64,000 bases of DNA, from NCBI GenBank assembly GCA_045597325.1, contig JAZLJJ010000011.1, positions 14,426 to 78,425 on the forward strand, given 5' to 3'. The stretch is from Lachnospiraceae bacterium. GTDB lineage: Bacteria > Bacillota > Clostridia > Lachnospirales > Lachnospiraceae. Within the stretch, counting starts at the first letter, position 1. Each line of letters opens with the position of its first letter. Below the pieces are notes generated by a model, which made no database searches, had not been told where the DNA came from, and saw nothing but the letters and a program-made list of their open reading frames with translations. The position numbers and the translations under genes were made by a program. Positions 16,330-61,314 of this stretch are shown here, one piece after another.

Positions 16330-17301
16330 ATGGAGAAATTTCATGAATTTTGCGAAACGCTGAGAACCGGGACGGAAGAGACAATGGGAACCGGGTATGA
16401 GGTGTCGCTTCGAACGGTGAAGAAGAATAACAATGTGACTTTGACGGGACTGATGATTCGGGAGGATGGGGCCAATGTCATTCCGACCATTTATCTGGAT
16501 CCGTATTATGAGCAGTATCTGGAGGGAAGATTGCTGACGGGAATCGAAGAAGAGATTCTTGATATTTATCGAAAGAACCGTGTGCCCCGGCAGACAGAAC
16601 TGAGTCTGGATTACGAGTCCGTAAAGGAGCGGATTTTCTTTTTGATGATGAATCGCGGCCTGAATCACGAAATGTTAGAATCCATGCCGCATGTGGAAAT
16701 CGGTGATTTGGCGGTTGGATTTCAGTGGATTGTTGATTTGGAGGAACGGCAAATCGGTGCTGTGAGGATTACCGAAGATCAGACGGCCATGTGGAATGTG
16801 ACAACGGAAGAACTGATTCGGGATGCACTGAACAATACGGTGCGTTCCCTGCCGCCGGTGCTGAAAAGCATCGAGGATGTACTGCGGGAAATTCTGATTG
16901 GGGATTCGGGACAGGACGGCAATAAGGAAAATGCGGAGAAACGGGACGAAATCATTCGATTATTGGGAGAAGAGACGGATCGAAAGACATTTCCGATGTA
17001 TGTCCTGTCCAACGAAACCGCACGGCTCGGGGCATCGTCTCTGCTGTCGCTTCCGTTTCTGAATCGGTTCCGCGATACCATCGGAGAGGATTTTTGGATT
17101 CTTCCGTCCAGCATTCATGAGGTCATTCTGGTTCCGGAATCGGAAGTGGAAGACCGGGAAAAACTGAAACAGATGGTACGGGAAATCAACGAGACCCAGG
17201 TGCCGATTCAGGAATTTTTGTCGGATGAGGTGTATCTGTACAGTGAATTTGAGAAACTGATACCCGATTCGTTCCGGACAAGACTGCTGCAGGCCGGTTG
17301 A
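16330..17301 (+). CDS. hypothetical protein, DUF5688-like
   Basis: The ORF is open from 16297 and the first ATG is at 16330. The N-terminus ...KKNNNVTLTGLMIREDGANVIPTIYLDPYYEQY resembles DUF5688 proteins of Lachnospiraceae (recall only). Start uncertain and RBS weak. Confidence 0.5.
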   Translation: MEKFHEFCETLRTGTEETMGTGYEVSLRTVKKNNNVTLTGLMIREDGANVIPTIYLDPYYEQYLEGRLLTGIEEEILDIYRKNRVPRQTELSLDYESVKERIFFLMMNRGLNHEMLESMPHVEIGDLAVGFQWIVDLEERQIGAVRITEDQTAMWNVTTEELIRDALNNTVRSLPPVLKSIEDVLREILIGDSGQDGNKENAEKRDEIIRLLGEETDRKTFPMYVLSNETARLGASSLLSLPFLNRFRDTIGEDFWILPSSIHEVILVPESEVEDREKLKQMVREINETQVPIQEFLSDEVYLYSEFEKLIPDSFRTRLLQAG

Positions 17302-17420
17302 TGCTGTTTGAGCAAGACTGCTGCAGGCAGCTGACGTTGTTTGAGCAAGACTACTGCAGGCCGGTTGACGCTGTTCGGACAAGACTGCTGCAGGCCGGCT
17401 GACACTGTTCGGGCAAAATG
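17281..17420. repeat. tandem repeat, 33-34 bp x 4, starting inside the last codons of the upstream CDS
   Basis: CAAGACTGCTGCAGG recurs at 17289, 17323, 17356 and 17390. Unit 1 holds the TGA stop (17299-17301). Confidence 0.9.
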
Positions 17421-17478
17421 TATTGAGAAGTATCGGAAAAAGAAAATGCCGTACCCGTTCGGGTACGGCAATCGGCAA

Positions 17479-17551
17479 TGCGCCTGAAGGGATTCGAACC
17501 CCCGACCATTGGCTTCGGAAGCCACTACTCTATCCACTGAGCTACAAGCGC
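17479..17551 (-). tRNA. tRNA-Arg (anticodon CCG)
   Basis: The reverse complement folds as GCGCTTG-TA-GCTC-AGTGGATA-GAGT-A-GTGGC-TTCCGAA-GCCAA-TGGTC-GGGGG-TTCGAAT-CCCTT-CAGGCGC-A. A hairpin GCCGTACCCG-TTC-GGGTACGGC plus T-run lies downstream on the - strand (17445-17470). Confidence 0.85.
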
Positions 17552-17625
17552 AGATGCATTTGACGAACGAAAAAGCGGAGTTTCGGAACCCGGAACAGGC
17601 GGCTCTCGTTCTGTCACTGCCCCGT

Positions 17626-17654
17626 ATGATACCACATTTGCCGAATAAAGTAAA
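17626..17654 (-). promoter_or_regulatory. candidate promoter for tRNA-Arg
   Basis: On the - strand: TTTACT, 17 nt, TATCAT with TG at the extended -10 position. Confidence 0.45.
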
Positions 17655-17710
17655 GCATATCTTGAAAGAAAACGAGAGAACGGATATCTTACGACCGCGG
17701 CGGTTGAAAC

Positions 17711-17808
17711 GTGAGAGAACGGAAGCCGGGGAGAGAACGGAAGCAGGCGGGAACGGAAGCAGGCGGGAACGGAAGCCGGGAGAGAACGGAAACAGAGCAA
17801 GAACGAAC
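17711..17808. repeat. short tandem repeats of GAACGGAAGC(A/C)GG, ~16-19 bp x 5
   Basis: gagagaacggaagccgggga / gagaacggaagcaggcgg / gaacggaagcaggcgg / gaacggaagccggga / gagaacggaaacagagc. Confidence 0.85.
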
Positions 17809-17960
17809 TCATGGCGGGAATGACAGCAGAAAATCAACACACTCGGGAAAGAAATATCATATCGGACCGCAGAAACATCATATCATACATTGTTTTTCCG
17901 TCCGGCAAACGGTACAGTGGAAGAAAAATGTTCGCTGAAGCGGACAGATGGGAGAAGGTT

Positions 17961-18914
17961 ATGATTCGATTCGGTATTATGGGATGCGGTTCGATTGCGA
18001 GAAGTTTTTGCGACGGAGCGTCACATGCAAATGATGCAGAGGTCGTTGCGGTAGCCAGCAAGAGCCTGGAGCGTGCGAAGGCACTGGCGGACGAAAAGGG
18101 AATCCGTCGGGCATACGGAGACTACGAAGAACTGTTGAACGACCCGGAAGTGGATGCGGTATATATAGCGACGACAACCAATTATCATTATGAGAATGTA
18201 AAACAGTGTCTGGCGGCTGGGAAGCATGTTCTGTGCGAAAAAGCCATGGTGGAAACCGAGGCGCGTGCGAGAGAACTGTTTGCCCTGGCAGCGGAAAAGA
18301 AACTGTTTCTGATGGAAGGCATGTGGTCCCGATTCCAGCCGAAAACCAAAAAGGTAAGGGAATGGGTGACCGGCGGTGCCATCGGAGACGTTGTCTGCAT
18401 GCAGGCCACTATCGGATTCGGACCGAAGCGGGACATGACCAACCGATTCTTTAATCCGGATCTCGGCGGCGGCGCATGGTATGATATCGGCGTGTATCTG
18501 GCGGATTTGCTGCCGTACTTCGTCGATCAGGAGCTGGTGGATATTTCCTGCGATATGACCTGCGCGGATTCCGGCGTCGATGCGGTTTTGAATATCAACA
18601 TGAAACTGACGTCCTGTCTTGCCAACGGTCAGGCGAGTCTGTATTGCAGAATGCCGGAGACCTGTTATATATACGGAACCGACGGAATGATTGTCATTCC
18701 CGGAATTCATTTTGGAGGAGAAGCGATTCGCTATGATGCTCAGGGAGCGGAGGCAGAACGCTTTGAGGATCCGGAGCCGTACCGGTTCTGTTATGAAATC
18801 AATGAAGTTACGGAATGCATTACGGCGGGACGGCTGACCAGTGAAACGGACAGCCCGGAAATGACCTATGCGACAAGCCGTCTGTATGACCGTTTTTGCC
18901 CAATCAAAAAGTAA
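17961..18914 (+). CDS. Gfo/Idh/MocA family oxidoreductase
   Basis: Rossmann N-terminus MIRFGIMGCGSIARSF and VLCEKAM motif. ATG 17961 has a GGAGAAGG RBS (the ORF is open from 17811). Confidence 0.85.
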   Translation: MIRFGIMGCGSIARSFCDGASHANDAEVVAVASKSLERAKALADEKGIRRAYGDYEELLNDPEVDAVYIATTTNYHYENVKQCLAAGKHVLCEKAMVETEARARELFALAAEKKLFLMEGMWSRFQPKTKKVREWVTGGAIGDVVCMQATIGFGPKRDMTNRFFNPDLGGGAWYDIGVYLADLLPYFVDQELVDISCDMTCADSGVDAVLNINMKLTSCLANGQASLYCRMPETCYIYGTDGMIVIPGIHFGGEAIRYDAQGAEAERFEDPEPYRFCYEINEVTECITAGRLTSETDSPEMTYATSRLYDRFCPIKK

Positions 18915-18950
18915 TCGGAAAAGACCGATTTTCCGACAGAACACAAAAAA

Positions 18951-18988
18951 ACAGCACCGCGCGCGAAAATGAGCCGGTGCTGTTTTTT
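18951..18988. terminator. bidirectional-type rho-independent terminator
   Basis: A-run, ACAGCACCG...CGGTGCTGT, T6. Confidence 0.8.
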
Positions 18989-19155
18989 GATTCGCGCACA
19001 ATCGGTTGTTTTTCTTGCAAAAAATGAGTTTTTGTATTACGATAGAGTGTGTATTTTAAGTGTTGAAAAGACCGTTTCGGGATGATTGGAAAGGTTGCTT
19101 TGAAATGGAGTTCGAAACGGTTCGCAGGATAAACGCAGATGGGAATTAAGACAGT

Positions 19156-20013
19156 ATGAAAAAGATAACAGGAAACCGATGGAGTCGGACAATTGCAATA
19201 TTTTGGCTGGCGCTTGCGGTCATGGGAATGTCGGGTTGCGGTAAGGAGTCAAAGACAAACCAAAGCAGGAATCCGTCACCGACGCCGACGACAGCGGTGC
19301 GACCGACGGACCCCGATACGGATGATGATACGGAACCGGCGTTAAGACCGGAAGCACAACAGCTGTTTCAGTTGAAACGGCCGGTACAGGGCGAGCTGTG
19401 TGCCGAGGTGGTGTTTGACGGATACGGTTCGGTGTTTGTGAAACTGTTCGAGGACCGGGCGAAAAAAGCGGTTGAGAATTTTCGGGCTTTGGCTGCAAAC
19501 GGATATTATAACGGGATTAAGGTGAATCGTATCGTGGCCGATTATATGATTCAGGCAGGTGACCGGGAAGGAACCGGACAGAGCGGAGAGAGCATTTACG
19601 GCGGTGGATTTGCCAATGAAATCAATTCGGATCTGCATCCGATTCGAGGAGCATTGTGCATGGCCAATCTCGGGGACGAATCGACGAATACGACACAGTT
19701 TTTCTTTGTACAGACCAGGAATGAACTGATTCGGGGACTGGCGGAACCGCTGGACAACCGATACCATATGACATTGTCCGAATATTTTGAAGAAGCATAC
19801 GGAACCGGGCTCAGTGACGTTGATTTGGAACTGTACAGGCAGTACGGCGGGGCACCCTGGCTCAACGGGCACAATACCGTGTTCGGACAGATTTACGAAG
19901 GTTATGAGGTGATGGACGCGTTAATGAGCGCCAAAGTAACGTCGCGATTGAAACCGAATCCGTCCGTCATCATTTCCGAGATTCGGATTTTCCGGTTCGG
20001 AGAGACTCAATAG
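19156..20013 (+). CDS. cyclophilin-type peptidyl-prolyl isomerase, lipoprotein
   Basis: Signal peptide with lipobox AVMGMSGC, Pro/Thr/Asp linker, and a cyclophilin core NRIVADYMIQAGD...GALCMAN...NTTQFFFV. Confidence 0.85.
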   Translation: MKKITGNRWSRTIAIFWLALAVMGMSGCGKESKTNQSRNPSPTPTTAVRPTDPDTDDDTEPALRPEAQQLFQLKRPVQGELCAEVVFDGYGSVFVKLFEDRAKKAVENFRALAANGYYNGIKVNRIVADYMIQAGDREGTGQSGESIYGGGFANEINSDLHPIRGALCMANLGDESTNTTQFFFVQTRNELIRGLAEPLDNRYHMTLSEYFEEAYGTGLSDVDLELYRQYGGAPWLNGHNTVFGQIYEGYEVMDALMSAKVTSRLKPNPSVIISEIRIFRFGETQ

Positions 20014-20160
20014 GGATGTTCACAGGATAATCATAAAACCGTGCTATACTGACCGATGAGAAGGCCGCATAACCATGGGCAGACGAACAGGCTGAAGCGG
20101 AATGCGGAACGGGAACAGGACAAGGAAACCTTCGAACCGGAGGGGAAAGGAAGAGGTATT

Positions 20161-24542: not shown

Positions 24543-25420
24543 CGATGGCAGAGTTTCATTCTGACATAACCTATGAGGATTTTCATCCGACCGTGCTGTA
24601 CTGCAGCCGCGTTCGTGATGCCAGACTGACGTATTATCATTCGCATTCCATTCTGGAAATTGCGTACATCCTGTCGGGACGCGGACAGTACCTTGTGGAC
24701 GGGGTCACGTATGAGGTTTCGCAGGGAGATTTGCTGGTTTGTAATCCGGGCGTGATGCACCAAAGTATCATTACCAACCCGGCCGACCCGACGCTGGAAT
24801 TTGTTGCCGGCCTGTCCGATATTCATTTTCTGGACATGGAGCCGAATCACATTCAGACGCCGAACGGAAGCCCCGTCATTTCCCTGAGCAATGAGCTGAA
24901 GCGGGAAATCAGCCGGTGCTGCTATGAGATTATCGATGAAAATATGTCCACGCAGCCCGGACGGTATTATCTCGTTCAGGCGCAAATGATGAAAATGCTG
25001 ATTCTGATTTATCGCTCCATCACCGAAAAGCCGAGAGATGAAATCGTTGGCGTTACGTTCGAAAGTTATTCGAAAAATTATGTTGTGCAGAAAATTATTC
25101 AGTATCTGAAGGCCAATTATTCGCAGCACATTTCGCTGGACCAGATTGCACAGAATATGTATCTGAGCCCGGTGTACATTTCCAAAATTTTTAAAGAAAA
25201 AACAGGCGATTCCCCGATTAATTATCTGATTCAGATTCGACTCGGGAAGGCCAAGGAAATGCTGGAAGAAAACCGCGGAAGTATTCGGATGATTGCGGCA
25301 CAGGTCGGTTATGACGACGTGTATCATTTCAGTAAACTGTTTAAAAAGCATTACGGTGTGTCCCCGTTGTTTTATCGGAAATCCGTCATCGGAGATGCGT
25401 CGGCCGGCTTGGAAGAATAG
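24539..25420 (+). CDS. AraC-family transcriptional regulator (cupin + HTH)
   Basis: Cupin-like N-terminus and a C-terminal HTH_AraC ...GDSPINYLIQIRLGKAKEML...FSKLFKKHYGVSP. It overlaps the ung stop by 4 nt (ATGA). Confidence 0.88.
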   Translation: MTMAEFHSDITYEDFHPTVLYCSRVRDARLTYYHSHSILEIAYILSGRGQYLVDGVTYEVSQGDLLVCNPGVMHQSIITNPADPTLEFVAGLSDIHFLDMEPNHIQTPNGSPVISLSNELKREISRCCYEIIDENMSTQPGRYYLVQAQMMKMLILIYRSITEKPRDEIVGVTFESYSKNYVVQKIIQYLKANYSQHISLDQIAQNMYLSPVYISKIFKEKTGDSPINYLIQIRLGKAKEMLEENRGSIRMIAAQVGYDDVYHFSKLFKKHYGVSPLFYRKSVIGDASAGLEE

Positions 25421-25550
25421 GAAATTGCGGGAACGGCGGCCGAGCCGGTGAGGACAATGCGGGAACGGCGGCTGAGCCGGTGAGGACAATGCGGGAACGG
25501 CGGCCGAGCCGGTGAGATGACGGCAGTGCGGCACGCGCCGGAATTGCGGG
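25400..25550. repeat. tandem repeat, 32 bp x 3 plus a partial fourth, directly after the AraC-family stop codon
   Basis: TGCGGGAACGGCGG recurs at 25426, 25458 and 25490 (and 25535). The last ~20 nt of the CDS resemble a diverged unit. Confidence 0.9.
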
Positions 25551-25578
25551 AACGGTCCACACGGAGAAAGGAGACAAG

Positions 25579-26425: not shown

Positions 26426-28540
26426 TTGAGTACACAAAACAACGAGAACGGAAACGGAGGAAAGAACGACAACAACAAAAAGAAGGGACTGGCGACAAGA
26501 ATCATTGCCACTATTATCATTTCCCTCATTTTTATTTGTTGCTGGATGTATGTTTCGTCCGAAATCGATAAGGTTCAAAATAAGGAAATCAGCTACGATG
26601 AATTCCTGGCAATGCTGGAAACCGATACCATCGAGAAACTGGAAATTCAGGAGGATTACGACAAAATCGTAATCACACCGAAGGAAGGCACGGCGGAGGA
26701 TAAGCGGACCAAGACGTATTATACGGGAATCATTACCGGAGACGAGGAACTGGTTGCCCGGTTGGAACGGGCGAGAGCGAGAATGGAACAGGAAGGCAAA
26801 GAGCCGTTCACCTATGAAAGACCGACGGTGGATAAGGGAACGACGCTGATTGACATTGTATTGTCATATGTTCTTCCGTTCGTATTTTTCTATCTGGTTC
26901 TTTGGGGTCTGTACCGCATGCTTACGAAAAACGGCGGAATCGGCGGACTCGGTGCCGGCAAATCGACGGCCAAGATGTATGTCGAGAAAGAAACCGGAAT
27001 TACTTTTAAGGATGTTGCGGGACAGGAGGAAGCCAAGGAATCCGTTTTGGAACTTGTGGATTTCCTGCATGACCCGGCAAAATATACCAGAATCGGTGCG
27101 AAACTGCCGAAGGGTGCGCTGCTGGTCGGCCCGCCCGGAACCGGTAAAACGCTGTTGGCCAAGGCCGTTGCGGGAGAAGCGAAGGTACCGTTCTTCTCAC
27201 TGTCCGGTTCGGATTTTGTAGAAATGTATGTCGGTGTCGGTGCGTCCCGAGTTCGTGATTTGTTCCGTCAGGCGCAGTCGATGGCACCGTGTATCGTATT
27301 TATTGATGAGATTGTTGCCATCGGTAAGAGCCGTGACAGCAGATACGGCGGCGGAAATGATGAGCGGGAACAGACACTGAACCAGCTCCTTGCCGAAATG
27401 GACGGCTTTGATACGTCCAAGGGTATTGTCATTTTGGCTGCGACAAACCGTCCCGAGGTATTGGATAAGGCACTTCTCCGTCCGGGTCGATTTGACCGCC
27501 GGATTATTGTTGACAAGCCGGATTTGAAAGGCCGTCTGGCAACACTGAAGGTACATGCGAAGAACGTATTGATGCACGATTCCGTTGATTTGGAAGAGAT
27601 TGCACTGGCTACGAGCGGTGCGGTCGGTTCCGATTTGGCCAATATTATCAATGAAGCCGCAATTCTTGCCGTTAAGGAAGGACGTTCCGTGGTACGGCAG
27701 TCCGACCTGATGGAATCGGTGGAAGTTGTATTTGCGGGAAAAGAGAAGAAAGACCGGATCCTCGGACCGGAGGAGAAGCGAATCGTCGCTTACCACGAAG
27801 TCGGTCATGCCCTGGTAGCAGCACTTCAGAAGGGTGCCGAGCCGGTTCAGAAGATTACCATAGTTCCGAGAACCATGGGAGCCCTCGGGTACACCATGCA
27901 GGTTCCGGAAGAAGAAAAATACCTGAATTCCAAAGAGGAAATCCTCATTTCCCTTCGAACTTTCTGCGGCGGTCGTGCTGCGGAAGCGGTGAAATTCAAT
28001 TCCGTAACGACCGGTGCCAGCAATGATATCGAGAGAGCAACGGCACTGGCCCGTCAGATGATTACCATGTACGGTATGTCGGATGAGTTCGGAATGGTTG
28101 CACTGGAAACGGTGGAAAGCAGATATCTGGACGGACGTCCGGTTGTGACCTGCAGTAACGAGACGGCAACCAAGATTGACGATGAAGTGAAGCGGATTAT
28201 GTCGGAATGCTATAACGAAGCGGTTCGCATGCTGACGGAAAATATGGAAATTATGGACGAAGCGGCAAACTTCCTGATTGAAAAGGAAACGATTACCGGC
28301 AAGCAGTTCATGGAGATTTTCAACCGTCATCGCGGAATTGTCGAAACGACATCGGATGCGCCCGCAGAGGAGCAGTCCGTTATCGGGAGTTCGTCGGTTG
28401 AGCCTGCAGAAGAACTGAACACGGCAGAGCCGGCAACGGCAGAGCCGAAGACGGAAGAGTCGAACACGGAAGAGCCGAAGACGGCAGAGCCGAAGACGGA
28501 AGAGCCGGCAACGGAAAACCGGAGTACGCTCGGAGTGTAA
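26426..28540 (+). CDS. ftsH: ATP-dependent zinc metalloprotease FtsH
   Basis: TM helices, Walker A GPPGTGKT, second region of homology, HEVGHAL zinc site. TTG start with AGGAGG 7 nt upstream. C-terminal (T-A/E-E-P-K/A) repeat tail. Confidence 0.95.
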
Positions 28541-28607: not shown

Positions 28608-28638
28608 CCGGGAACCGCATGTTCCCGGTCCGGTCTTT
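28608..28638 (+). terminator. terminator-like hairpin after ftsH
   Basis: CCGGGAAC-CGCAT-GTTCCCGG followed by TCCGGTCTTT (a weak T-tract). Confidence 0.5.
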
Positions 28639-28768
28639 ATCTCATAGGAAAGTTCGTCCTATGAGATAAAAAAACGCTTCGCGAGGATGCACACGCCTGT
28701 GCAGAGGAAAAATGTCGCTTCGCGACGCACAGGCGGCGCGAGCATATCGCAAGCGATATGCTTTGTTC
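28639..28768 (+). repeat. structured ~130-nt intergenic element, copy 3
   Basis: Near-identical to copies 4-6, from ATCTCATAGGAAAGTTCGTCCTATGAGAT to GAGCATATCGCAAGCGATATGCTTTGTTC. Confidence 0.95.
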
Positions 28769-32799: not shown

Positions 32800-32908
32800 C
32801 CGAACGGAAGTCGGAACCGGCCGAACAGGCAGAAGTCGGAACCGGCCGAACAGGCAAAAGTCGGAACCGGCTGAACAGACGGAAGTCGGAACCGGCCGAA
32901 CAGGCAAA
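32800..32908. repeat. tandem repeat, 25 bp x 4, between the glk stop and the murB RBS
   Basis: GAAGTCGGAACCGG(C/T)(C/T)GAACAG(G/A)C recurs with starts at 32807, 32832, 32857 and 32882. Confidence 0.9.
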
Positions 32909-34831: not shown

Positions 34832-34835
34832 GTCA

Positions 34836-35149: not shown

Positions 35150-35193
35150 AGAAGTCCTTCGGGTCACCTCCGGGTGATTCGGAGGGCTTTTTT
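35150..35193 (+). terminator. rho-independent terminator after crh
   Basis: CCTCCG-GGTGATT-CGGAGG inside a longer GC-rich hairpin, followed by CTTTTTT. Confidence 0.65.
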
Positions 35194-35370
35194 ATCTCAT
35201 AGGAAAGCTCGTCCTATGAGATAAAAAAACGCTCCGCGAGGATGCACACGTCTGTGCAGAGGAAAAATGTCGCTTCGCGACGCACAGGCGGCGCGAGCAT
35301 ATCGCAAGCGATATGCTTTGTTCTGTCATAGGAAAGTTCGTCCTATGAGATAAAAAAACATTCCGCGAGG
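35194..35370 (+). repeat. structured ~130-nt intergenic element, copy 4, plus a second partial unit (hairpin + A-run + CATTCCGCGAGG)
   Basis: A full unit is followed by TGTCATAGGAAAGTTCGTCCTATGAGATAAAAAAACATTCCGCGAGG. Confidence 0.95.
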
Positions 35371-35479: not shown

Positions 35480-37693
35480 ATGAATCAAAAAACAGTAAAA
35501 AAATGGATGTGCTTACTCAGTGTGCTGTGTTGTCTGATGCTCGGTAACCGGACGACAGGGACGGCTTTGGCAGAGGCTGAAGTACCGGATACCGTAACAG
35601 CAGAGGTGGCAGCGAAAGAAACTACGGAAACAGCGAAAGAGACTACGGATGCGGAGCCGGTGGCAGCAGTGGATGAATCATTTGCAGAAACCACAGAGGC
35701 CACCAATATTGCAAGCGGTACCGGCTGGTATTTGGATCGTGCCGGATGCCTGCATCTTACAGGAAAAATAGAAGAAATTGGCTGGAAAGATTACAAATCG
35801 AATATTATAACAGTTATCGCTGAGACGGGTTCATCACTCGGACAGGATGGAAGAAAAGTGTTTATGGATTGTAATAATCTCGTATCTGCTGACTTAAGTA
35901 AGTTGGATACGTCGAATGTACTTGATATGTCCGATATGTTTAACGGATGTTATTCGTTAACAACATTGGATGTCAGTACATGGGATACGTCGCATGTGGC
36001 ACATTTCATTCGTATGTTTTACGACTGTACAGTATTAACGACATTGGATGTCAGTGAGTGGGATATGTCGGGCGCGATATTTATTGATGACATGTTTGGG
36101 GAGTGTCGTGCATTAACAACCTTGGATGTCAGTAAGTGGCGTACACCGCATTTATACAGCGCGACATATACGTTTTTTCGTTGTAGAAAATTAACGACCC
36201 TGGATGTCAGCAATTGGGATACATCGAACGTGACGGATATGAGCGGAATATTTGATGGTTGCGAGGCAGTGAAGGAATTGGATGTCAGCAAGTGGGATAC
36301 GTCAAACGTGACGAGAATGGGCAAAATGTTTATGTGCTGTTATTCCGTAACGGAATTGGACGTCAGCAAGTGGAATGTATCAAACGTGACGAGTATGCAG
36401 AACATGTTCAATGAGTGCTCGGCTTTATCGGAATTGGATGTCAGCAAGTGGAATGTATCAAACGTGACCAATATGAGCAACATGTTTAAGCGTTGCAGTT
36501 CGTTGACGGCACCGGCTGTCAGCAATTGGGACATGTCAAGCGTGACAGATATGGATTACATGTTTTCATATTGCAGTTCATTAACTACACTGGATCTCAG
36601 CGGGTGGGATATCTCGAAAGTGAAAAGACTGGATGACTTTGTTTGGGAGAGTAATTCGCTTCATACGATTATTTGGCCCAAACAGGTAAAGGATGATCTT
36701 AGGCTGAAATGGCTGGCAGAGGAATTGCTCGAGTATTGCCCTGTATGGTGTGATTCCAAAACGGGGAAGATGTATTCTGATGAGAAGGTAATGCAGAAAT
36801 TATCCGGTTCGGTGACACTTGTTGTCCATGGCATTGATATCCGGATAAGTAATGGTTGGGAGGGAGTTATCCTTAAGTGGACTCCGGTAGCAGGCAGCCC
36901 GGTAACGGTCTTTCGTAAGGAAGCCGATATTTATCGAAATTCATCCGACGATTTGAGTGGTCTGGATTACACTAGGTATAATGGCAAGTGGACGAAAATG
37001 GCAACCACGACGGAAGGGGTGTATTATGACAAAGAGGTAACAAACGCAAAAGGATATGATTATATTGTGTTGCGAAACAATGCGACAACGCCGCGGTCGA
37101 TACCTCTGAATATATGCCGTTATGTTCAGCCTCCGACGATAGAGTCAGTGACCAATGTGGCCGGCGGAGTGAAGGTGAGCTGGTCGTCTGAGAGCTATAG
37201 GCCGGACGGATTCTTCGTGTATCGCAAAGACACTCAGAACGGTACGTGGCACATGATTGGCTCTACCCAAAAGAATCTGACCTATACGGATACAACCGTG
37301 GAAAACGGAGTAGTATACTATTATGCCGTGAAAGAATTCTATAAAGAGACGAAAACGTACCGAAGCTACAGTGCTTCCAGTTCCGCAAAGAATACAGTTT
37401 ATGCGAAGAATGTATTTATTTCCGCGATTTCCAATCCGCGTCCCGGTGATTTCACGGTGGTTCATTCCGTAAACGACAAGGCAACCGGATACCAGATTGC
37501 ATACAGTACCAATTCCAATATGAGCGGCTCCAAGTACGTGACTCAGGCGGGAGGAAACTATACAACCATTAAGGCAACCGGACTGACAAAGGGCAAGACA
37601 TATTATGTCATGGTACGCCCGTATAAGACCGTCGCCGGTTACACCTTCTACGGTGCATGGAGTGCCAAGAAGGTGGTTACCGTTACGAAGTAA
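35480..37693 (+). CDS. secreted surface protein: DUF285/BspA-type leucine-rich repeats + FN3-like repeats
   Basis: Signal peptide MNQKTVKKWMCLLSVLCCLM...ALAEA. About 10 copies of a 25-aa repeat L..LDVS.WDTSNVT.M..MF..C (about 35900-36640). C-terminal modules such as GVKVSWS...G(Y/F).VYRKDT..GTW..IG....LTYTDTTVENGVVYYYAVKA are FN3-like. Confidence 0.8.
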   Translation: MNQKTVKKWMCLLSVLCCLMLGNRTTGTALAEAEVPDTVTAEVAAKETTETAKETTDAEPVAAVDESFAETTEATNIASGTGWYLDRAGCLHLTGKIEEIGWKDYKSNIITVIAETGSSLGQDGRKVFMDCNNLVSADLSKLDTSNVLDMSDMFNGCYSLTTLDVSTWDTSHVAHFIRMFYDCTVLTTLDVSEWDMSGAIFIDDMFGECRALTTLDVSKWRTPHLYSATYTFFRCRKLTTLDVSNWDTSNVTDMSGIFDGCEAVKELDVSKWDTSNVTRMGKMFMCCYSVTELDVSKWNVSNVTSMQNMFNECSALSELDVSKWNVSNVTNMSNMFKRCSSLTAPAVSNWDMSSVTDMDYMFSYCSSLTTLDLSGWDISKVKRLDDFVWESNSLHTIIWPKQVKDDLRLKWLAEELLEYCPVWCDSKTGKMYSDEKVMQKLSGSVTLVVHGIDIRISNGWEGVILKWTPVAGSPVTVFRKEADIYRNSSDDLSGLDYTRYNGKWTKMATTTEGVYYDKEVTNAKGYDYIVLRNNATTPRSIPLNICRYVQPPTIESVTNVAGGVKVSWSSESYRPDGFFVYRKDTQNGTWHMIGSTQKNLTYTDTTVENGVVYYYAVKEFYKETKTYRSYSASSSAKNTVYAKNVFISAISNPRPGDFTVVHSVNDKATGYQIAYSTNSNMSGSKYVTQAGGNYTTIKATGLTKGKTYYVMVRPYKTVAGYTFYGAWSAKKVVTVTK

Positions 37694-37793
37694 ACGCGGC
37701 GCCCGGAGTGCAGCGAAGCCGATTGCATTGACGAAATAAACAGCGTCCTGAGTGCAGCAAAAACGATTACATTGACGAAATAAATGCTGCATA
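37660..37793. repeat. tandem repeat, 44-46 bp x 3, re-iterating the last 11 codons plus the stop of the surface-protein gene
   Basis: Unit starts (GAGTGC) at 37660, 37706 and 37750. The units translate as WSAKKVVTVTK*, SAAKPIALTK* and SAAKTITLTK*. Confidence 0.9.
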
Positions 37794-37849
37794 CAGTGAA
37801 TTTTGCAACCGGAACAGAGCGAAATACAGTTATATTTTTGAGGAGGCAG

Positions 37850-40932: not shown

Positions 40933-41030
40933 ACGGGCACCGAAACCAGATGATGGCACTGAAAGCGATAAAATGAACGATTATCGAGACCAAATATTGG
41001 CATCGAAAAAGCAATAAAGTGAAATAAAAA
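40888..41030. repeat. tandem repeat, 44 bp x 3, re-iterating the H-box codons plus the stop codon
   Basis: ACCAGATGAT at 40901 and 40945, ACCAAATATT at 40989. The units translate as HDYRNQMIALKAIK*, GHRNQMMALKAIK* and DYRDQILASKKQ*. Confidence 0.9.
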
Positions 41031-42445: not shown

Positions 42446-42476
42446 AGACCTGTCGCTCTCCGCGGCAGGTCTTTTT
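42446..42476 (+). terminator. rho-independent terminator
   Basis: AGACCTG-TCGCTCTCCGCGG-CAGGTCT followed by T5. Confidence 0.8.
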
Positions 42477-42625
42477 ATCTCATAGGAAAGTTCGTCCTAT
42501 GAGATAAAAAACGCTCCGCGAGGATGCACACGCCTGTGCAGAGGAAAAATGTCGCTTCGCGACGCACAGGCGGCGCGAGCATATCGCAAGCGATATGCTT
42601 TGTTCTGACATGAGATATAGGACAA
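42477..42625 (+). repeat. structured ~130-nt intergenic element, copy 5 (plus a decayed second hairpin)
   Basis: A full unit 42477-42606, then TGACATGAGATATAGGACAAAACG. Confidence 0.95.
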
Positions 42626-43774: not shown

Positions 43775-43880
43775 CCGATACAGAAATAATTTTGCCACGA
43801 TACAGAAATTATTTCCGCAATACAATAAATTATTTCCGTAATACAATAAATAATCGTTGCCACAGTACAGAAACAACTTG
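43775..43880. repeat. five imperfect ~21-bp direct repeats upstream of the DMT transporter gene
   Basis: CCGATACAGAAATAATTTTG / CCACGATACAGAAATTATTT / CCGCAATACAATAAATTATTT / CCGTAATACAATAAATAATCGTTG / CCACAGTACAGAAACAACTTG. Confidence 0.75.
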
Positions 43881-44111
43881 TTACTGCAATACCCCACAAC
43901 ATTGAGGATTATAATAAAAAGAAAAAACAATGTCAATCAGTGATTTTGAGCATCCCGGCCGTTATCGCCGGCAAACCTCATTACGCCGGCCTGCCGTCGT
44001 TGCCGGCAAACCGGCCCTCCCTCATTGCAACAAAACCGGCCGGCTGTCGTTAGGGGAAAACCGGCCGAGTGTCATTTGGAAAATCAGTCGAACAGGTTAT
44101 GAAAAATCGGT

Positions 44112-47105: not shown

Positions 47106-47140
47106 GATAAGCGAAACGGTCGGGCGACGAAAGGTGCCGG

Positions 47141-47268
47141 CGAGCGGCCGGAGCGGCGATGTAACAAGGCCGCAGAACGCCGGAGAAACCCGCTCTCGAG
47201 CGGCCGGAGCGGCGATGTGACAAGGCCGCAGAACGCCGGAGGAACCTGCTCTCGAGCGGCCGGAACAG
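47141..47268. repeat. tandem repeat, 56 bp x 2.3, between deoC and deoD
   Basis: CGAGCGGCCGGAGCGGCGATGT(A/G)ACAAGGCCGCAGAACGCCGGAG(A/G)AAC(C/-)C(G/T)CTCT at 47141 and 47197, with a partial unit at 47253. Confidence 0.9.
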
Positions 47269-47296
47269 TATTTACGAAAAAGGACGGTACAGAATA

Positions 47297-48067: not shown

Positions 48068-48097
48068 CCCGGCTTCGATGAGGAGCCGGGATTTTTT
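48068..48097 (+). terminator. rho-independent terminator after deoD
   Basis: CCCGGCT-TCGATGAGG-AGCCGGG-A-T6. Confidence 0.85.
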
Positions 48098-48276
48098 ATC
48101 TCACAGGAAAGTTCGTCCTGTGAGATAAAAAACGCTCCGCGAGAATGCACACGCCTGTGCAGAGGAAAGATGTCGCTTCGCGACGCACAGGCGGCGCGAG
48201 CATATCGCAAGCGATATGCTTTGTTCTCTCACAGGAAAGTTCGTCCTGTGAGAAAAAAACGCTCCGCGAGGATGCA
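48098..48276 (+). repeat. structured ~130-nt intergenic element, copy 6, plus a second hairpin unit; both hairpins carry compensatory changes
   Basis: CTCACAGGAAAGTTCGTCCTGTGAG (twice) where the other copies have CTCATAGGAAAGTTCGTCCTATGAG. Confidence 0.95.
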
Positions 48277-52362: not shown

Positions 52363-53373
52363 ATGAGCAGTTGTTTTGTTCCCGAAGGCTATAAGGCCGT
52401 ATTGGGAAATCGGGAAACACAGATCGCAATTAAGAAGGTAAAGGATTATTTTCAGAGAGAACTGGCAACGCAGCTGAATCTGCATCGTGTGACGGCACCG
52501 TTGTTTGTAACACCGGAGTCCGGTCTGAACGATAACCTGAACGGTGTAGAGCGTCCGGTTGTGTTCGGAATTCGTGAAAATGATGATCACCCCGTGGAAA
52601 TCGTGCATTCTCTTGCAAAATGGAAGCGTATGGCACTGGCCAAATACGGATTCCGCGTAGGCGAAGGTCTGTATACGGATATGAATGCCATTCGCCGGGA
52701 TGAGGATACCGACAATATTCACTCCATTTTCGTGGATCAGTGGGACTGGGAAAAGGTGATTACCCGGGAGCAGAGAACGGAAGAGTATCTGAAAAAGACG
52801 GTGAAGGGTGTGTATGAAGCACTTCGCGTCACCGAAAAATATATTGCCAACCAGTATGATTATGTTGAGTGCATTTTGCCCGAGGAGATTACGTTTATTA
52901 CGTCGCAGGAACTGCTGGACCGCTATCCGGACAAGACCGCAAAGGAACGTGAATATGCGGCCGCAAAGGAATACGGAGCGGTTTTCATTATGAAAATCGG
53001 CGATTTGCTCAGCAACGGAGAACGCCATGACGGACGCGCACCGGACTATGATGACTGGCAGTTGAACGGAGATATCATGGTATATTATCCCGTCAATGAT
53101 ATTGCATTGGAATTGTCCTCCATGGGAATCCGCGTCGATGAAGAAGCGCTGCTGAGCCAGCTGGAAAAAGCCGGCTGCCCGGAACGGAAGGAAATGGAAT
53201 TCCAGAAGGCTTTGCTGGAGGGCAAACTGCCGTACACGGTCGGCGGCGGAATCGGACAGTCCCGAATCTGTATGTTCTTCCTGCGGAAGACGCATATCGG
53301 AGAAGTACAGGTTTCGGTATGGCCCGCAGCGGATGTCGAATATGCCCGCGCGCATGGTGTGGAGCTGTTATAA
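52363..53373 (+). CDS. asnA: aspartate--ammonia ligase
   Basis: RRDEDTDNIHSIFVDQWDWE and GGGIGQSRICMFFL. Confidence 0.92.
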   Translation: MSSCFVPEGYKAVLGNRETQIAIKKVKDYFQRELATQLNLHRVTAPLFVTPESGLNDNLNGVERPVVFGIRENDDHPVEIVHSLAKWKRMALAKYGFRVGEGLYTDMNAIRRDEDTDNIHSIFVDQWDWEKVITREQRTEEYLKKTVKGVYEALRVTEKYIANQYDYVECILPEEITFITSQELLDRYPDKTAKEREYAAAKEYGAVFIMKIGDLLSNGERHDGRAPDYDDWQLNGDIMVYYPVNDIALELSSMGIRVDEEALLSQLEKAGCPERKEMEFQKALLEGKLPYTVGGGIGQSRICMFFLRKTHIGEVQVSVWPAADVEYARAHGVELL

Positions 53374-53510
53374 TCGGTCCGGCGGACGTGCCAGATACCG
53401 AAACGGAAAATATGCCCGCGCGCATGGCGTGGAGCTGTTATAATCGGTCCGGCGGACGTGCCAGATACCGAAACGGAATATGCCCGCGCACATGGCGTGG
53501 AGCGGATATA
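53338..53510. repeat. tandem repeat, 68-70 bp x 2.5, re-iterating the last 11 codons, the stop and the 3' flank of asnA
   Basis: TATGCCCGCGCGCATGG(T/C)GTGGAGCTGTTATAATCGGTCCGGCGGACGTGCCAGATACCGAAACGGAA at 53341 and 53411, with a third partial unit from 53479. Confidence 0.95.
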
Positions 53511-53522: not shown

Positions 53523-53545
53523 GAGGCTGCTTCGGCAGCCTCTTT
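53523..53545 (+). terminator. rho-independent terminator after the asnA repeat array
   Basis: GAGGCTGC-TTCG-GCAGCCTC-TTT. Confidence 0.75.
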
Positions 53546-53568: not shown

Positions 53569-54294
53569 ATGAAACGGGAAAGTCAGCAGAGCGAATGGAA
53601 GGACGGACTGAAAAGCGGTATCCCGATTGCGTTGGGATATTTTTTTGTGTCCTTTGCATTTGGAATTATGGGGTCGGCATCCGGCCTGCAATGGTGGGAA
53701 TCGGTTTTGATTTCCATGACAAATATGACAAGTGCCGGTCAGTTTGCCGGAGTGAAAATAATCGAACAGGGAGGTTCCGCGGCGGTGCTGGCACTGTCCC
53801 AGCTGGTGATTAATCTGAGATACTCGCTGATGGGAATTTCTCTGGCGCAGAATACGGAAGAATCGTTTTCCGGATGGAAGAGAGCACTGCTCGGATTTTG
53901 AATTACCGATGAAATATACGGCGTTTCCGTCAATCGGAAAAAGCCGGTGAGTGCAATTTATTTTCTTGGACTGGCATTCCTTCCGTGGCTTGGCTGGTCA
54001 CTCGGAACCCTTGCGGGAGCGCTGTTCGGCGATGTTATGCCGGATGCCGTGACAAAGGTGATGGGACTTGCGTTGTACGGAATGTTTATCGCGATTGTGG
54101 TTCCGGAAGTGAAACAGGATCGGAAGGTACTGATTGTAGCCGCGATTTCCGCCGCAATCAGTTGCCTGATTGCTTTCGTGCCGGTATTCCGGGCAATTTC
54201 CGCGGGAACATCGGTTATCCTTTGCGCGGTTACGGCATCGCTTCTCGGAGCATGGCTGTTTCCGCTGCCGGAGGAGAACGGAGGTGACGTATGA
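53569..54294 (+). pseudogene. azlC: azlC (branched-chain amino acid permease subunit) interrupted by one in-frame TGA at 53899-53901
   Basis: ORFs 53569..53901 and 53947..54294 are in the same frame. The read-through translation ...ALLGF*ITDEIYGVSVN... spans the conserved AzlC TDE region. Confidence 0.75.
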
Positions 54295-56239: not shown

Positions 56240-56619
56240 GGAATTCCTTTCTGATTCGGCGCAGGGCCGAATGCGAACAGCCTTTCGGAATCCCGGTTGG
56301 GATGCCGTTCCTCAAATTTTACTTGAAAATGATGCGCCCGTCAATCCAAAGCGGCTGAAAAATGAGAGAAATTACGCTTTCGCCGGTTCGCGGAAGGGAA
56401 ACCGGGGGACGTCACCCGGAATTGTAAGATGATATGTCAAAAAAAGTAAATTACACGTTATTTCACCGTAAAATACCGAGAAATGGCATAGCATTTTTAC
56501 AAATGTTGTGCTACAATGCGATTTAGGAATTTTTGCCCTTTAAGGGGTAGTTTGCCCTTTTTTTGAGGTGAAAAGGATTATTTTTTCAAAAGGATTATTT
56601 TTTCAGCAAGGAGAATGAT

Positions 56620-58320: not shown

Positions 58321-58384
58321 GGAACACGGAAATCGAAAAGTATAAAATGAACCGGTGACGAAATGTCCGGTTTGAAAATCCATT

Positions 58385-58560
58385 ACGGGAGGTGAGTTTT
58401 GTGGAAGGTGACAGTGGAAGCGGCGCGAACCCTGCCGGGTATCACTCGTGCTGCTCAGACAACAGAAGACGACGCAAAGCTCAGATTCGGTGCGGGGGAC
58501 GGAGTACCCGATAGAATGATTCCTGCGGCTTTGCAAAAAGCGGCAATGAGACCTGTATGG
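58385..58560 (+). promoter_or_regulatory. possible M-box (Mg2+) riboswitch in the mgtE leader
   Basis: A ~290-nt untranslated leader. Segments GGGAGGTGAG, GTGCTGCTCAGACAACAGAAGACGACGC and ACAGCATTTTGCTAAAAG loosely resemble the conserved M-box blocks GGUGAGG, GCUGCUGCCC...AAAGACGC and ACAGUGCUAAAGC. No covariance search was run. Confidence 0.35.
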
Positions 58561-58613
58561 TTCCGTTTCTTCTAACAGCATTTTGCTAAAAGAATGAAAA
58601 CGGAGGATAAACC

Positions 58614-60110
58614 ATGAATATGGATGAGGAAACCCTCGTCTCAACGGAGGTCGAGGAGAACAAAAACCTGTTGACGGAACCGGAGAAAACAGCTTCGGAG
58701 TCGACAGAGCCGGCAGAACCGGCAATCAGGGAGGCGGATGAGGACGAAGTATTCTTTGACAAAGAGGAAGCCATCCGACTTCTGGACGAGAAACAGTATG
58801 CGGCTTTGAGAATGCTGCTTCGGGAAGCGGAGCCGGCCGATATTGCGGAATTGTACGAAGATATTTCCAAGCAGCAGTATGCGGTTATTTTCCGCATTTT
58901 GCCCAAGGAACTTGCAGCGGAAGTATTTGTTGAGCTGGACAGTGATTTCCAGCAGATTTTGATTGAATCGTTCAGTGATGTCGAATTGCGGGATGTCCTG
59001 AATGAGCTGTATATGGATGATGCGGCCGACCTGGTTGAGGAAATGCCCGCCAACGTGGTGAAACGTATTCTTCAGAACTCGAAGCCGGATATGCGGAAAA
59101 CGGTCAATGAACTGTTGAAGTATCCGGAGGACAGTGCCGGAAGCATTATGACAACCGAGTTTGTCCGGTTGAAATCGGATTTGACGGTGGATGAGGCATT
59201 TGCCTATATCCGGCAGGTCGCAATCGACAAGGAGACCATTTATACCTGTTATGTTACCGACAAAATCAGCAGGCTGATCGGCGTGGTAACGGTCAAGGAT
59301 TTGCTCCTGGCGGAACGCAGCAAGGTCATTTCCGAGATTATGGAAGAACATGTCGTCAGCGTGAATACGTTGGACGATAAGGAAGACGTGGCTGCGACAA
59401 TCAGTAAGTATGATGCACTGGCCCTGCCGGTTGTGGATGCGGAAAATCGTCTGGTCGGTATTGTCACCGTCGATGATGCGATCGATGTCATGCAGGATGA
59501 GACGGAAGAGGACTTCGCGAAAATGAACGCTATGCTCCCTACCGAGAAACCGTATTTGCGTACGAATCCGTGGGAGTTGTACCGGTCGAGAATCATTTGG
59601 CTGTTGCTGCTCATGATTTCCGCAACGTTTACGGGAATGATTATTTCATCATTCCAAAATGCACTGGCGGCACAGGTCGTGCTGACGGCATTTATTCCGA
59701 TGCTGATGGACACCGGCGGAAATTCCGGAAGTCAGGCGAGTGTTACGGTGATTCGTGCCTTGTCGCTCGGCGAGGTGGAATTCGGTGATATCGCGAAGGT
59801 AATCTGGAAAGAAATCCGGGTGGCCCTGATGTGCGGCGGCAGTCTGGCGGTGGTTTCTTTCGGTAAGATTTTTTTGGTGGATAAGATTTTGATGGGACAG
59901 CCGATTACGGTAACGATTGCGTTGGTTGTCTGTCTGACTCTGATGGTTACGGTGGTTGCGGCGAAGCTGTTGGGATGCACACTGCCGTTGATTGTAAGCA
60001 AACTCGGATTTGACCCGGCGGTAATGGCAAGTCCGTTTATTACTACGATTGTGGATGCGGTTTCGTTGTTTGTATTCTTTGGCTTGGCCACCATGATTAT
60101 GGGAATTTAG
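58614..60110 (+). CDS. mgtE: magnesium transporter MgtE
   Basis: Acidic N-terminus, MgtE-N domain, two CBS domains, and a TM domain with IPMLMDTGGNSGSQ. Confidence 0.92.
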   Translation: MNMDEETLVSTEVEENKNLLTEPEKTASESTEPAEPAIREADEDEVFFDKEEAIRLLDEKQYAALRMLLREAEPADIAELYEDISKQQYAVIFRILPKELAAEVFVELDSDFQQILIESFSDVELRDVLNELYMDDAADLVEEMPANVVKRILQNSKPDMRKTVNELLKYPEDSAGSIMTTEFVRLKSDLTVDEAFAYIRQVAIDKETIYTCYVTDKISRLIGVVTVKDLLLAERSKVISEIMEEHVVSVNTLDDKEDVAATISKYDALALPVVDAENRLVGIVTVDDAIDVMQDETEEDFAKMNAMLPTEKPYLRTNPWELYRSRIIWLLLLMISATFTGMIISSFQNALAAQVVLTAFIPMLMDTGGNSGSQASVTVIRALSLGEVEFGDIAKVIWKEIRVALMCGGSLAVVSFGKIFLVDKILMGQPITVTIALVVCLTLMVTVVAAKLLGCTLPLIVSKLGFDPAVMASPFITTIVDAVSLFVFFGLATMIMGI

Positions 60111-60156
60111 GAATATGAACCGACTGCAAAGTTGATAAAGGAGGTACTGCGGCAAG

Positions 60157-61236
60157 GTGGAAGATCGTCGTCAAAAACTGTATAAGCACTTTTTGATTTT
60201 GATGTTGCTGGTTACGTTTCTGATTTTGTTCGTAACTTTTTGCCAGTATTTTCTCATTATCAAAATCAATAAGGAATACGCGGATATTACACTGAGCAGT
60301 TTCCTGCAGTATTATGTGGAAATACCGGCGGTGATTTACGGCGTTTCGTATATCGCCATGTGTTTTATACTGGATTCGCCGAATATTGCGTACAAATGGA
60401 AAGACCTTACCACAATTTTGTATTTGTGGATTTTATGTACGGTTATCTGTTTTGTAGGAAGCTATTCGCCGTCCATTTTCGGATGTTATTGTGTTCCGAT
60501 TGTGATGTCTACGATTTACGGGCGGCGCAAACTGTGTCGAATCACAGAGTCCCTTTGCGTTGTGACGCTGACGCAGTTTATGGGAACGGCGAGACTGATT
60601 CGAACCTGTACGGAACGAAGCGGTCTGCATGTCGGAATTGCGGTTCTGTTCCTGCTTGTATTCATTTTGTGCAATGAAATTCTGCTGGAATTTGTATTGG
60701 ACAACAATGACGAGATTCAGACTCACATGGATGATAAATCCAGACTTGCGATGAAACTCCAGAGAGAGCCGATGACGGGTCTTTACAACCATACGGCATT
60801 TTACGAATACCTGAACGAGTGCGTCAAAAAACGCGGTGAATCCCCGTTGACGCTGGCGGTTGTGGATATCGATAATTTCAAGAAAATCAATGATACATAC
60901 GGACACAATAACGGAGATGAGGTCATTTTGAATCTGGCCAGAACGCTGCAGAAATGGTGTGACGACTCCAATAATTACGTATGCCGGTACGGCGGCGAAG
61001 AGTTTGCGGTCATTTTCCCGAATGTGAAGGTGAAGCAGGCAAAGGAAGCCATGGAGCACGTACTGGAGGATTTCCGAAATACCACGTACAGCTGGCTGGA
61101 CGGAAACATCACGTTCAGCTGCGGCATTTTCCAGTTAAGCTCTTATACGATGACGGCCGATGAATTCTTTAAAGTGGCGGACAAGATGCTGTACAGTGCG
61201 AAGCACAACGGAAAGAACCAGTGTGTCAGCGGCTGA
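60157..61236 (+). CDS. membrane-bound diguanylate cyclase (GGDEF)
   Basis: About 5 TM helices. TGLYNH...VDIDNFKKINDTYGH..GD...RYGGEEFAVIF (intact GGEEF). GTG start. Confidence 0.88.
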   Translation: MEDRRQKLYKHFLILMLLVTFLILFVTFCQYFLIIKINKEYADITLSSFLQYYVEIPAVIYGVSYIAMCFILDSPNIAYKWKDLTTILYLWILCTVICFVGSYSPSIFGCYCVPIVMSTIYGRRKLCRITESLCVVTLTQFMGTARLIRTCTERSGLHVGIAVLFLLVFILCNEILLEFVLDNNDEIQTHMDDKSRLAMKLQREPMTGLYNHTAFYEYLNECVKKRGESPLTLAVVDIDNFKKINDTYGHNNGDEVILNLARTLQKWCDDSNNYVCRYGGEEFAVIFPNVKVKQAKEAMEHVLEDFRNTTYSWLDGNITFSCGIFQLSSYTMTADEFFKVADKMLYSAKHNGKNQCVSG

Positions 61237-61314
61237 CCGGAAACGGAAAAGGCTGACCGGAAACGGAAACCGGCTGACCGGAAACGGAAAAAGGCTGACC
61301 GAAAACGGAAAACT
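61231..61314. repeat. tandem repeat, 20-22 bp x 4, whose first unit contains the GGDEF-gene stop codon
   Basis: GGCTGACCGGAAACGGAAAA at 61231, 61251, 61272 and 61293. TGA 61234-61236 is the stop. Confidence 0.95.

Follow-up and report, generated by a model that had tools for sequence, protein, structure and literature searches.

We analyzed a 64-kb stretch of DNA from an uncultured gut or rumen Lachnospiraceae bacterium (assembly GCA_045597325.1, contig JAZLJJ010000011.1, positions 14,426 to 78,425; hereafter the window), in which several genes are followed, at or directly behind their stop codons, by short tandem arrays that often repeat the end of the gene itself. Judged by comparison with related genomes, these arrays are genuine, fast-turnover minisatellites and not assembly artefacts, because the relatives carry arrays of their own at other gene ends and the loci held in common differ in copy number or in repeat unit. 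The arrays are probably variable-number tandem repeats (VNTRs), or minisatellites, that owe their position behind stop codons to a high, lineage-wide rate of local duplication filtered by selection.

Arrays were called with Tandem Repeats Finder (TRF) on the whole window and by direct reading of the sequence. TRF returned a total of 19 tandem arrays with periods of 15-78 bp, 13 of them in spacers and 6 within coding sequences (CDSs) (Table 1). Together they occupy ~17% of the spacer DNA and 3.3% of the window, at ~3 arrays per 10 kb, and matches within arrays range from 59 to 100%, typically 77-95%. All eight arrays listed in an earlier note on this DNA were present where it had placed them, by TRF as well as by direct reading, and they begin between 44 nucleotides (nt) before and 35 nt after the end of a stop codon. 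The same note had reported that in five of them the first unit is the end of the CDS with its stop codon, and we found this for the DUF5688, surface-protein, kinase-fragment, asnA, and GGDEF arrays. TRF calls the surface-protein array at 37699-37784 (44 bp x2.0), and the extra unit from ~37655 comes from hand alignment; this first unit is ~66% identical and lies inside the end of the DUF285/LRR CDS, where it takes in the TAA stop.

The pattern is not random, as had been argued: local shuffles (n = 30) yielded 0.03 arrays per window versus the 19 observed. The units are also unique to their loci, since a blastn-short search of every unit against 1.5 Mb matched only its own locus or the ortholog. 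The further claim, that the arrays all occupy the same position relative to a gene, is true of the eight arrays first noted and fails for the full set, which includes five extra spacer arrays and the six arrays within CDSs. Two of these five extra arrays lie in divergent spacers, where there is no stop codon on either side.

To place the window we used AsnA-centred loci from 80 species. The window groups within the Lachnospiraceae, and its closest matches are rumen-derived metagenome-assembled genomes with 84-89% AsnA identity. One relative (GCA_045641285.1, hereafter the sister genome; 79.5 kb assembled from its 110-kb syntenic contig) is 90.5-92.8% identical to the window in nucleotide sequence over the ~39 kb that were aligned globally. 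A third genome is represented by Logan contigs from run SRR18314300, and shorter contigs, including contigs from ENA, add further loci. The sister genome holds 9 spacer arrays and 8 arrays within CDSs, and the periods of the latter are all divisible by three.

Comparison of these genomes revealed extensive turnover. The sister genome has stop-straddling arrays of its own behind Sir2 (49 bp) and MgtE (18/37 bp); both are common to the sister and third genomes, and the corresponding sequence is single-copy in the window. Conversely, the AraC array, the deoC array, and the extra asnA copies are missing in relatives, the AraC array region being a 117-bp gain with respect to two of them, and the kinase-fragment array differs in copy number in a relative. 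At the glk locus, the window has four copies of a 25-bp unit versus three and two copies of a homologous 18-bp unit in two relatives, a change in unit length that indicates homogenisation within the array. At the end of the GGDEF gene, a 21-bp segment spanning the stop was duplicated in the window and a 31-bp segment was duplicated independently in the third genome. Copy number also varies across the three genomes for an in-frame 15-bp array in MgtE (about 6, 2, and 1). The DUF5688 array is present in both the window and the sister genome, and its units are more alike within a genome than between orthologous positions. By a hand count based on overlap with TRF arrays, ~20 of the 33 indels of at least 9 bp between the window and the sister genome fall within tandem arrays, and 5 more are insertions of a 130-bp mobile element described below.

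Arrays made or miscounted by a short-read metagenome assembler, an explanation that the earlier note had raised, would be a concern in a contig from an uncultured lineage, where near-identical unit counts, such as those at glk, rest on the assembly. The comparisons make this explanation close to negligible. Orthologous arrays are found in independent assemblies from other samples, namely the NCBI genome, a Logan contig (SRR18314300), and ENA contigs; copies within an array differ from one another by 5-23%; the arrays within CDSs are always in frame; and most arrays fall below the usual length of assembler k-mers or reads. Copies in arrays common to both genomes are more diverged (77-85% matches) than those in lineage-specific arrays (89-95% matched), and this is what real, ageing duplications should look like.

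We also examined where arrays occur and which periods survive there. Spacers make up 11.8% of the window and yet hold 13 of the 19 arrays (P = 1e-8). Inside CDSs the period was a multiple of three in 6 of 6 arrays in the window, and in 14 of 14 when these were pooled with the sister genome (P = 2e-7), while spacer periods divisible by three numbered only 3 of 13 (window) and 2 of 9 (sister genome). Ten of the 13 spacer arrays lie between co-directional genes. When expressed per kb of spacer, array density was nearly the same in co-directional (1.72), convergent (1.62), and divergent (1.74) spacers.

Density was compared with that in other bacteria using only arrays with a period that is not a multiple of three. 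Per 10 kb, the window has 1.72 such arrays and the sister genome 1.01, compared to 0.17 in 80 asnA loci from other Lachnospiraceae (1.33 Mb, 22 arrays) and 0.05 in 80 metagenome loci (0.75 Mb) that came from a PNP-protein scan of metagenome contigs, the closest match having 68% identity. When tested against the rate of 0.17, the window gave a Poisson probability of 2e-8 and the sister genome one of 7e-5. Repeats are scarce in the closest outgroups (L001-L003), and a few unrelated loci, such as L049, look repeat-rich, as do L026 and L007.

Table 1. Tandem arrays of the window, with positions counted from its first nucleotide.
Feature	Position	Strand	Period and copies	Remarks
DUF5688 array	17279-17416	+	34 bp x4.1	Unit 1 consists of the final 23 nt of the CDS including TGA; common to the sister genome
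AraC array	25419-25516	+	32 bp x3.1	Directly behind the AraC-family stop
AraC array tail	to 25556	+		24-nt filler, then the ancestral copy of the GGAATTGCGGGAACGG motif; decayed partial copy at 25541-25556
glk array	32807-32906	+	25 bp x4.0	Between the ROK glucokinase gene and murB
Surface-protein array	37655-37784	+	44-46 bp x3	Kept in relative
Kinase-fragment array	40889-41002	+	44 bp x2.6	Unit 1 is the last 44 nt of the CDS including TGA
deoC block	47111-47271	+	56 bp x2.2 (47141-47264)	161 bp between deoC and the PNP gene, holding the array
asnA array	53338-53510	+	70 bp x2.5	Unit joins the final 36 nt of asnA, with the TAA, to 34 nt of 3' spacer
GGDEF array	61231-61312	+	20-21 bp x4	Begins 6 nt inside the CDS; TGA in each unit
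Divergent-spacer array	17715-17820	+	16 bp x5.4 (also 50 bp x2.1)	Between tRNA-Arg (-) and a GFO/IDH/MocA gene; no upstream stop codon
Spacer array between two minus-strand genes	43806-43851	.	21 bp x2.2	Copy number varies across three genomes
Spacer array	43986-44066	.	25 bp x3.2	45 nt downstream of the stop of a minus-strand adh_short gene
Divergent-spacer duplication	56571-56605	+	17 bp x2.1, perfect	14 nt upstream of the GDSL-lipase start codon; absent in relative
Array within a copy of the dispersed 130-bp element	14093-14182	+	41 bp x2.2	Internal duplication
FtsH C-terminal tail array	28409-28516	+	15/45 bp	In frame; 24 nt before the CDS end
Trigger-factor C-terminal tail array	62618-62812	+	18/54 bp	In frame; ends 3 nt before the CDS end
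Alpha-amylase-like CDS array	8151-8237	+	24 bp x3.7	In frame
HSP90-like CDS array	12863-12910	+	18 bp x2.7	In frame
Surface-protein N-terminus array	35610-35649	+	21 bp x1.9	In frame; relative differs by an 18-bp indel

Young arrays point to the source of the units. In the GGDEF array, the Sir2 and MgtE-end arrays, the GGDEF array of the third genome, and the duplication at 56571, the units exactly repeat a sequence that a relative has in a single copy. The asnA unit is less direct. The distance from the asnA stop to a conserved hairpin is 33-63 nt in three outgroups versus 10 nt in the sister genome, and a 9-mer of the 34-nt part of the window's unit recurs in outgroup L002 (P about 0.01). 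Because the outgroups keep a spacer of this length and one of them gives the 9-mer match, the unit probably consists of the CDS end plus ancestral spacer, which the sister lineage would then have lost. The deoC block is a true gain of 161 bp, as an outgroup and four relatives have a spacer of only 22-34 nt there. Its 56-bp unit holds nested near-tandem repeats of 9-10 nt (P about 0.02), in keeping with a stepwise build-up by small duplications. For the seemingly novel parts of units, Smith-Waterman alignment to the flanks, a blastn-short search of both strands of 143 kb, and two scans of viral contigs for exact patterns all returned chance-level matches or none, and the origin of the AraC unit is ambiguous.

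The units also differ in composition from their surroundings. On the gene-sense strand they contain 12% T versus 24% in other spacer DNA; they are GC-rich (55% versus 45%), and A is nearly the same (32% in units versus 31% in other spacer DNA). We considered whether the low T content was a by-product of position and rejected this, since T makes up 22% of the DNA just behind the stops of array-free spacers and 23% of CDS ends. The shortage of T could reflect stabler slipped intermediates, selection against units that would repeat U-tracts or that are AT-rich and promoter-like, or a real preference for certain templates.

From these observations we infer the following course of events. Segments of 15-80 bp would be duplicated locally in tandem, by replication slippage or template switching, and the resulting arrays would then expand and contract, with the lineage producing or keeping arrays ~10-30 times more often than its relatives do. 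Inside genes, purifying selection would leave only in-frame units, mostly in tolerant C-terminal tails, and in spacers any period would survive. A duplication that spans a stop codon would leave the protein unchanged and so could persist as a CDS end and stop reiterated in the 3' untranslated region (UTR). Start regions and protein cores would be constrained, and C-terminal tails and the DNA just behind stops would be free. As the genes are almost all co-directional and the spacers are short, nearly all of the tolerated positions would lie just behind stop codons. Slippage or template switching, which the earlier note had proposed as coupled to the ends of translation or transcription, thus keeps its place as the generator, given that young arrays copy local sequence and that copy number varies across genomes. 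The coupling is not needed, because spacers without a stop codon are equally dense in arrays, in-frame arrays occur inside genes, and selection would account for the asymmetries.

How far neutrality alone would place arrays at stop codons was estimated by simulation. Uniform duplications with the observed unit lengths were introduced into the window after each array had been reduced to a single unit, and a duplication was tolerated if it fell in free spacer or spanned a stop codon. Under this model, 22% of arrays would straddle a stop and 43% would begin within 35 nt of one.

Several observations weigh against duplication and selection as the whole account. In the window, 5 of 10 arrays straddled a stop (P = 0.05) and 8 of 10 began within 35 nt of one (P = 0.02), and when the independent arrays of the relatives were pooled with these, 8 of 18 straddled a stop (P = 0.03). 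A hand count found 8 arrays across a stop codon versus none across a start codon, a split with P = 0.004 under equal tolerance of both. Of 14 in-frame arrays, 6 lie in the final 68 nt of a CDS, where 0.7 would be expected; the clustering is in the C-terminal tails of FtsH, trigger factor, and UvrC, and only about three of the loci are independent. The units are T-poor (12% versus 22-24% in comparable DNA), which location does not explain, and for the 161-bp deoC block no template could be detected in 143 kb. Moreover, the raised duplication rate is itself deduced from array density, which is ~10-30 times that of relatives; copy numbers in the window are as assembled, and the cross-genome comparison was made with relatives rather than with conspecific strains.

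The excess of stop-straddling and stop-proximal arrays over the simulation (P about 0.02-0.05), together with the asymmetry between stops and starts, the C-terminal cluster, the T-poor units, and the deoC gain without a template, could mean that repeats form by a dedicated or biased process with a true preference for gene 3' ends and for T-poor, GC-rich templates. Such a process would resemble that of the Borg elements, whose tandem repeats obey the same rules; a possible cause would be stalling of the replisome where transcription or translation ends, followed by template switching, and position would then be partly mutational. We consider this explanation unlikely. Array density is just as high in divergent spacers, which contain no stop codon, arrays also occur in the middle of genes and near N-termini, and every positional bias is expected from selection on start regions and protein cores. 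The sample is small, at about 20 independent spacer arrays, and the neutral model ignores the promoters, terminators, and mobile elements of long spacers, which inflates the share of arrays expected far from stops. With ~20 independent arrays, a modest mutational bias toward 3' ends on top of selection is possible.

We also asked whether the arrays could be functional in RNA. According to the earlier note, arrays lie between stop codon and terminator where a terminator exists. This was so for GGDEF (terminator at 61329-61358) and asnA (hairpin at 53523-53542, kept in relatives) and was not so for DUF5688, behind which the hairpin scores as the terminator of the minus-strand tRNA-Arg. With terminator hairpins downstream of them, the GGDEF and asnA arrays are predicted to be in 3' UTRs, a position that fits tolerance as well as function. 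Arrays that are transcribed in this way, or between cistrons, might be selected RNA elements that bind a CsrA-like or other protein, stabilize mRNA, or couple translation. GGA-containing motifs can be read in most units, CGGAA is 2.3-fold enriched in units, and the region of the surface-protein array is ~99% identical between genomes that average ~90%. We nevertheless regard selected RNA elements as very unlikely. The shared core proposed earlier did not survive counting: CGGAA and GGAAC occur in 4 of 11 and 2 of 11 units, and both 5-mers are frequent throughout the window (5.6 and 2.6 per kb). Units are enriched in CCGG and GGCCG, in line with their GC-rich make-up, and the frequency of GGA in units, on which a CsrA-type site would depend, is found in a genome that is rich in G and A. 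Beyond base composition, the locus-specific units have no motif in common. Folding z-scores against dinucleotide shuffles ranged from +0.55 to -2.7 with no common structure, and a search of the whole window with Rfam at gathering thresholds returned tRNAs only. Sister genomes lack the AraC, deoC, and asnA arrays and differ in unit length or copy number at others, so that arrays are gained, lost, and remodelled, and similar arrays occur in promoter-side spacers and inside genes.

A further suggestion was that the reiterated stops are back-up stop codons. Each unit of the five straddling arrays does carry a stop triplet, and a related possibility, that arrays are footprints of a mobile element, has in its favor a mobile 130-bp element active in the same spacers. 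Both ideas are scarcely credible in the light of the sequences. With periods of 34, 44, and 70 bp the reiterated stops are mostly out of frame, and the next in-frame stop in the eight genes lies 7-103 codons further on, compared to a median of 16.5 codons for all plus-strand genes. The arrays are related neither to each other nor to the 130-bp element, except for the array at 14093, which lies inside one copy of it. Inspection of the unit sequences by eye revealed no terminal inverted repeats and no spacer-separated structure resembling clustered regularly interspaced short palindromic repeats.

The dispersed element of ~130 bp is present in the window at 14060-14230, 16119-16241, 28637-28767, 35192-35322, 42475-42604, and 48071-48225, in copies that are ~90-98% identical. 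It begins with a palindromic hairpin, ATCTCATAGGAAAGTTCGTCCTATGAGAT, and contains two further hairpins, and most copies stand directly behind a terminator hairpin and T-run. The copy at 14060 holds an internal 41-bp duplication. No Rfam family matched the element. The sister genome has one copy, on the minus strand (rel79 ~74907-75020). At least three window copies are missing at the orthologous sites of the sister genome, and the element is therefore mobile, in the manner of a miniature inverted-repeat transposable element (MITE-like).

Called genes transferred from a syntenic relative served as the gene map of the window. Pfam backed the names that had been given to the DUF5688, AraC, ROK glucokinase, DUF285/LRR surface-protein, DeoC, AsnA, and GGDEF genes, and a Pfam search of the kinase fragment gave no match. 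The C-terminus of the latter is H-box-like (...RHDYRNQMIALKAIK), and its gene lies downstream of an HATPase_c_5 gene. The kinase fragment (40129-40932) appears as the truncated part of an AgrC-like membrane sensor, ending right behind the H-box (…LRHDYRNQMIALKAIK*), downstream of a separate HATPase_c_5 gene and a LytTR response regulator. A relative, L081, has two tandem paralogues of it, at 18380-19189 and 19244-20017.

Nearly all genes of the window are on the plus strand, which is purine-rich, with more G than C (whole window: G 18250 versus C 13422; A 17388 versus T 14940). This asymmetry, together with the strand bias of the genes, gives rise to long spurious antisense open reading frames (ORFs) that mislead simple ORF-based gene calling. 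We also observed that the surface-protein 3' spacer, with the array and the start of the next gene (37694-37960), is ~99% identical between the window and the relative, and that the surface-protein CDS flanking this stretch is only about 85-89% identical. This near-identity suggests either a recent exchange by recombination or strong constraint.

Among the other Lachnospiraceae asnA loci, four (L016, L030, L049, and L054) each carry an independent, unrelated array 3-130 nt downstream of the asnA stop (~11008), and these make up 4 of the 22 arrays with periods other than multiples of three in 1.33 Mb. With arrays there in four other Lachnospiraceae, the asnA 3' spacer seems to be a recurrently tolerant or prone site. 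In the window, the azlC gene (53569-54294) has an in-frame TGA at 53899-53901 where the sister genome has GGA (Gly), and the remainder of its 241-codon frame is 96% identical to the relative. The TGA may be a recent nonsense mutation, which would make azlC a pseudogene, a sequencing error, or a recoding event. A tRNA-Pro with anticodon AGG (A34), at 13948-14023, scored 56.8 bits with the Rfam tRNA model; it adjoins tRNA-Pro(CGG) and tRNA-Thr(CGT) and is kept in the sister genome (relative L088 9641-9716). A34 tRNAs other than tRNA-Arg(ACG) are uncommon in bacteria.

If plain duplication followed by selection can generate stop-reiterating repeats behind stop codons, genome scans should be cautious in reading function into them. 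In this uncultured Lachnospiraceae lineage, minisatellites are behind most of the length differences between sister genomes, and the lineage could be used to test what sets the rate of repeat formation, be it the repertoire of DNA repair enzymes and polymerases, composition, or conflicts between transcription and replication. The arrays would be usable as high-resolution strain markers. For annotation, they are expected to shift gene ends and to create low-complexity C-terminal tails, as in FtsH, trigger factor, and UvrC.

Several known systems resemble the arrays in part. Mycobacterial interspersed repetitive units (MIRUs), which Supply and colleagues are said to have described in 1997, reportedly are tandem units of 40-100 bp in the spacers of operons that touch the flanking stop and start codons and vary in copy number, and they reportedly form a single dispersed family with conserved consensus types and small ORFs linking the flanking genes. 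Like MIRUs, the arrays of the window lie mostly in spacers between co-directional genes; unlike them, their units are unrelated between loci and carry stop codons. A copy of a CDS 3' end just downstream of its gene also recalls the repeat pairs of diversity-generating retroelements. Unlike those pairs, the units here are short, tandem, and found behind many unrelated housekeeping genes. No reverse transcriptase (RVT domain) is listed in the Pfam tables of the orthologous genes, and the asnA copies that we compared differ at C/T and G/A positions, not at adenines only.

Bacterial VNTRs have units of 10-100 bp, are intergenic or in frame, vary in copy number between strains, and are attributed to replication slippage or recombination. 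The arrays of the window share with them head-to-tail units of ~10-100 bp and a copy number that varies between related genomes, and they differ from the usual VNTRs in their unusual density and in the systematic reiteration of CDS ends and stops, which to our knowledge is not a described hallmark of VNTRs. Such bacterial VNTRs and minisatellites, as used in multiple-locus VNTR analysis (MLVA) typing, are the subject of a review by Zhou, Aertsen and Michiels (2014), as cited in PMC9879509.

In the Borg elements of Methanoperedens, head-to-tail repeats are pervasive, and each locus has a unit sequence of its own (Schoelmerich et al. 2023, PMC9879509). Inside ORFs the length of Borg repeats is always divisible by three, compared to 14-38% of the intergenic ones, and the repeats evolve fast, differ between close relatives, and are almost absent from related and host genomes (PMC9879509). 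They are also perfect and very young, depleted in T and enriched in A on the coding strand, and some parts of their units have no obvious origin (PMC9879509). The arrays of the window are like Borg repeats in their locus-unique units, frame rule, fast turnover, rarity in relatives, and T depletion, and in that some parts lack an origin. A Borg-like, genome-specific process acting on a bacterial chromosome might, then, amplify T-poor, GC-rich segments with a bias toward 3' ends and sometimes without a detectable template. We think this quite unlikely; if true, the lineage would be a bacterial system in which to study the unexplained origin of Borg-type repeats. Unlike those of Borgs, the repeats here are 59-100% matched and some are older than the split from the sister genome, the units are enriched in GC with A unchanged, and most units can be traced to local sequence. 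They also stand on a bacterial chromosome among housekeeping genes (uvrC, ftsH, murB, asnA, and tig) and not on an archaeal extrachromosomal element. The arrays of the window are thus an analogue of Borg repeats and not a member of that group, and Borg repeats are their closest parallel in the searchable literature.

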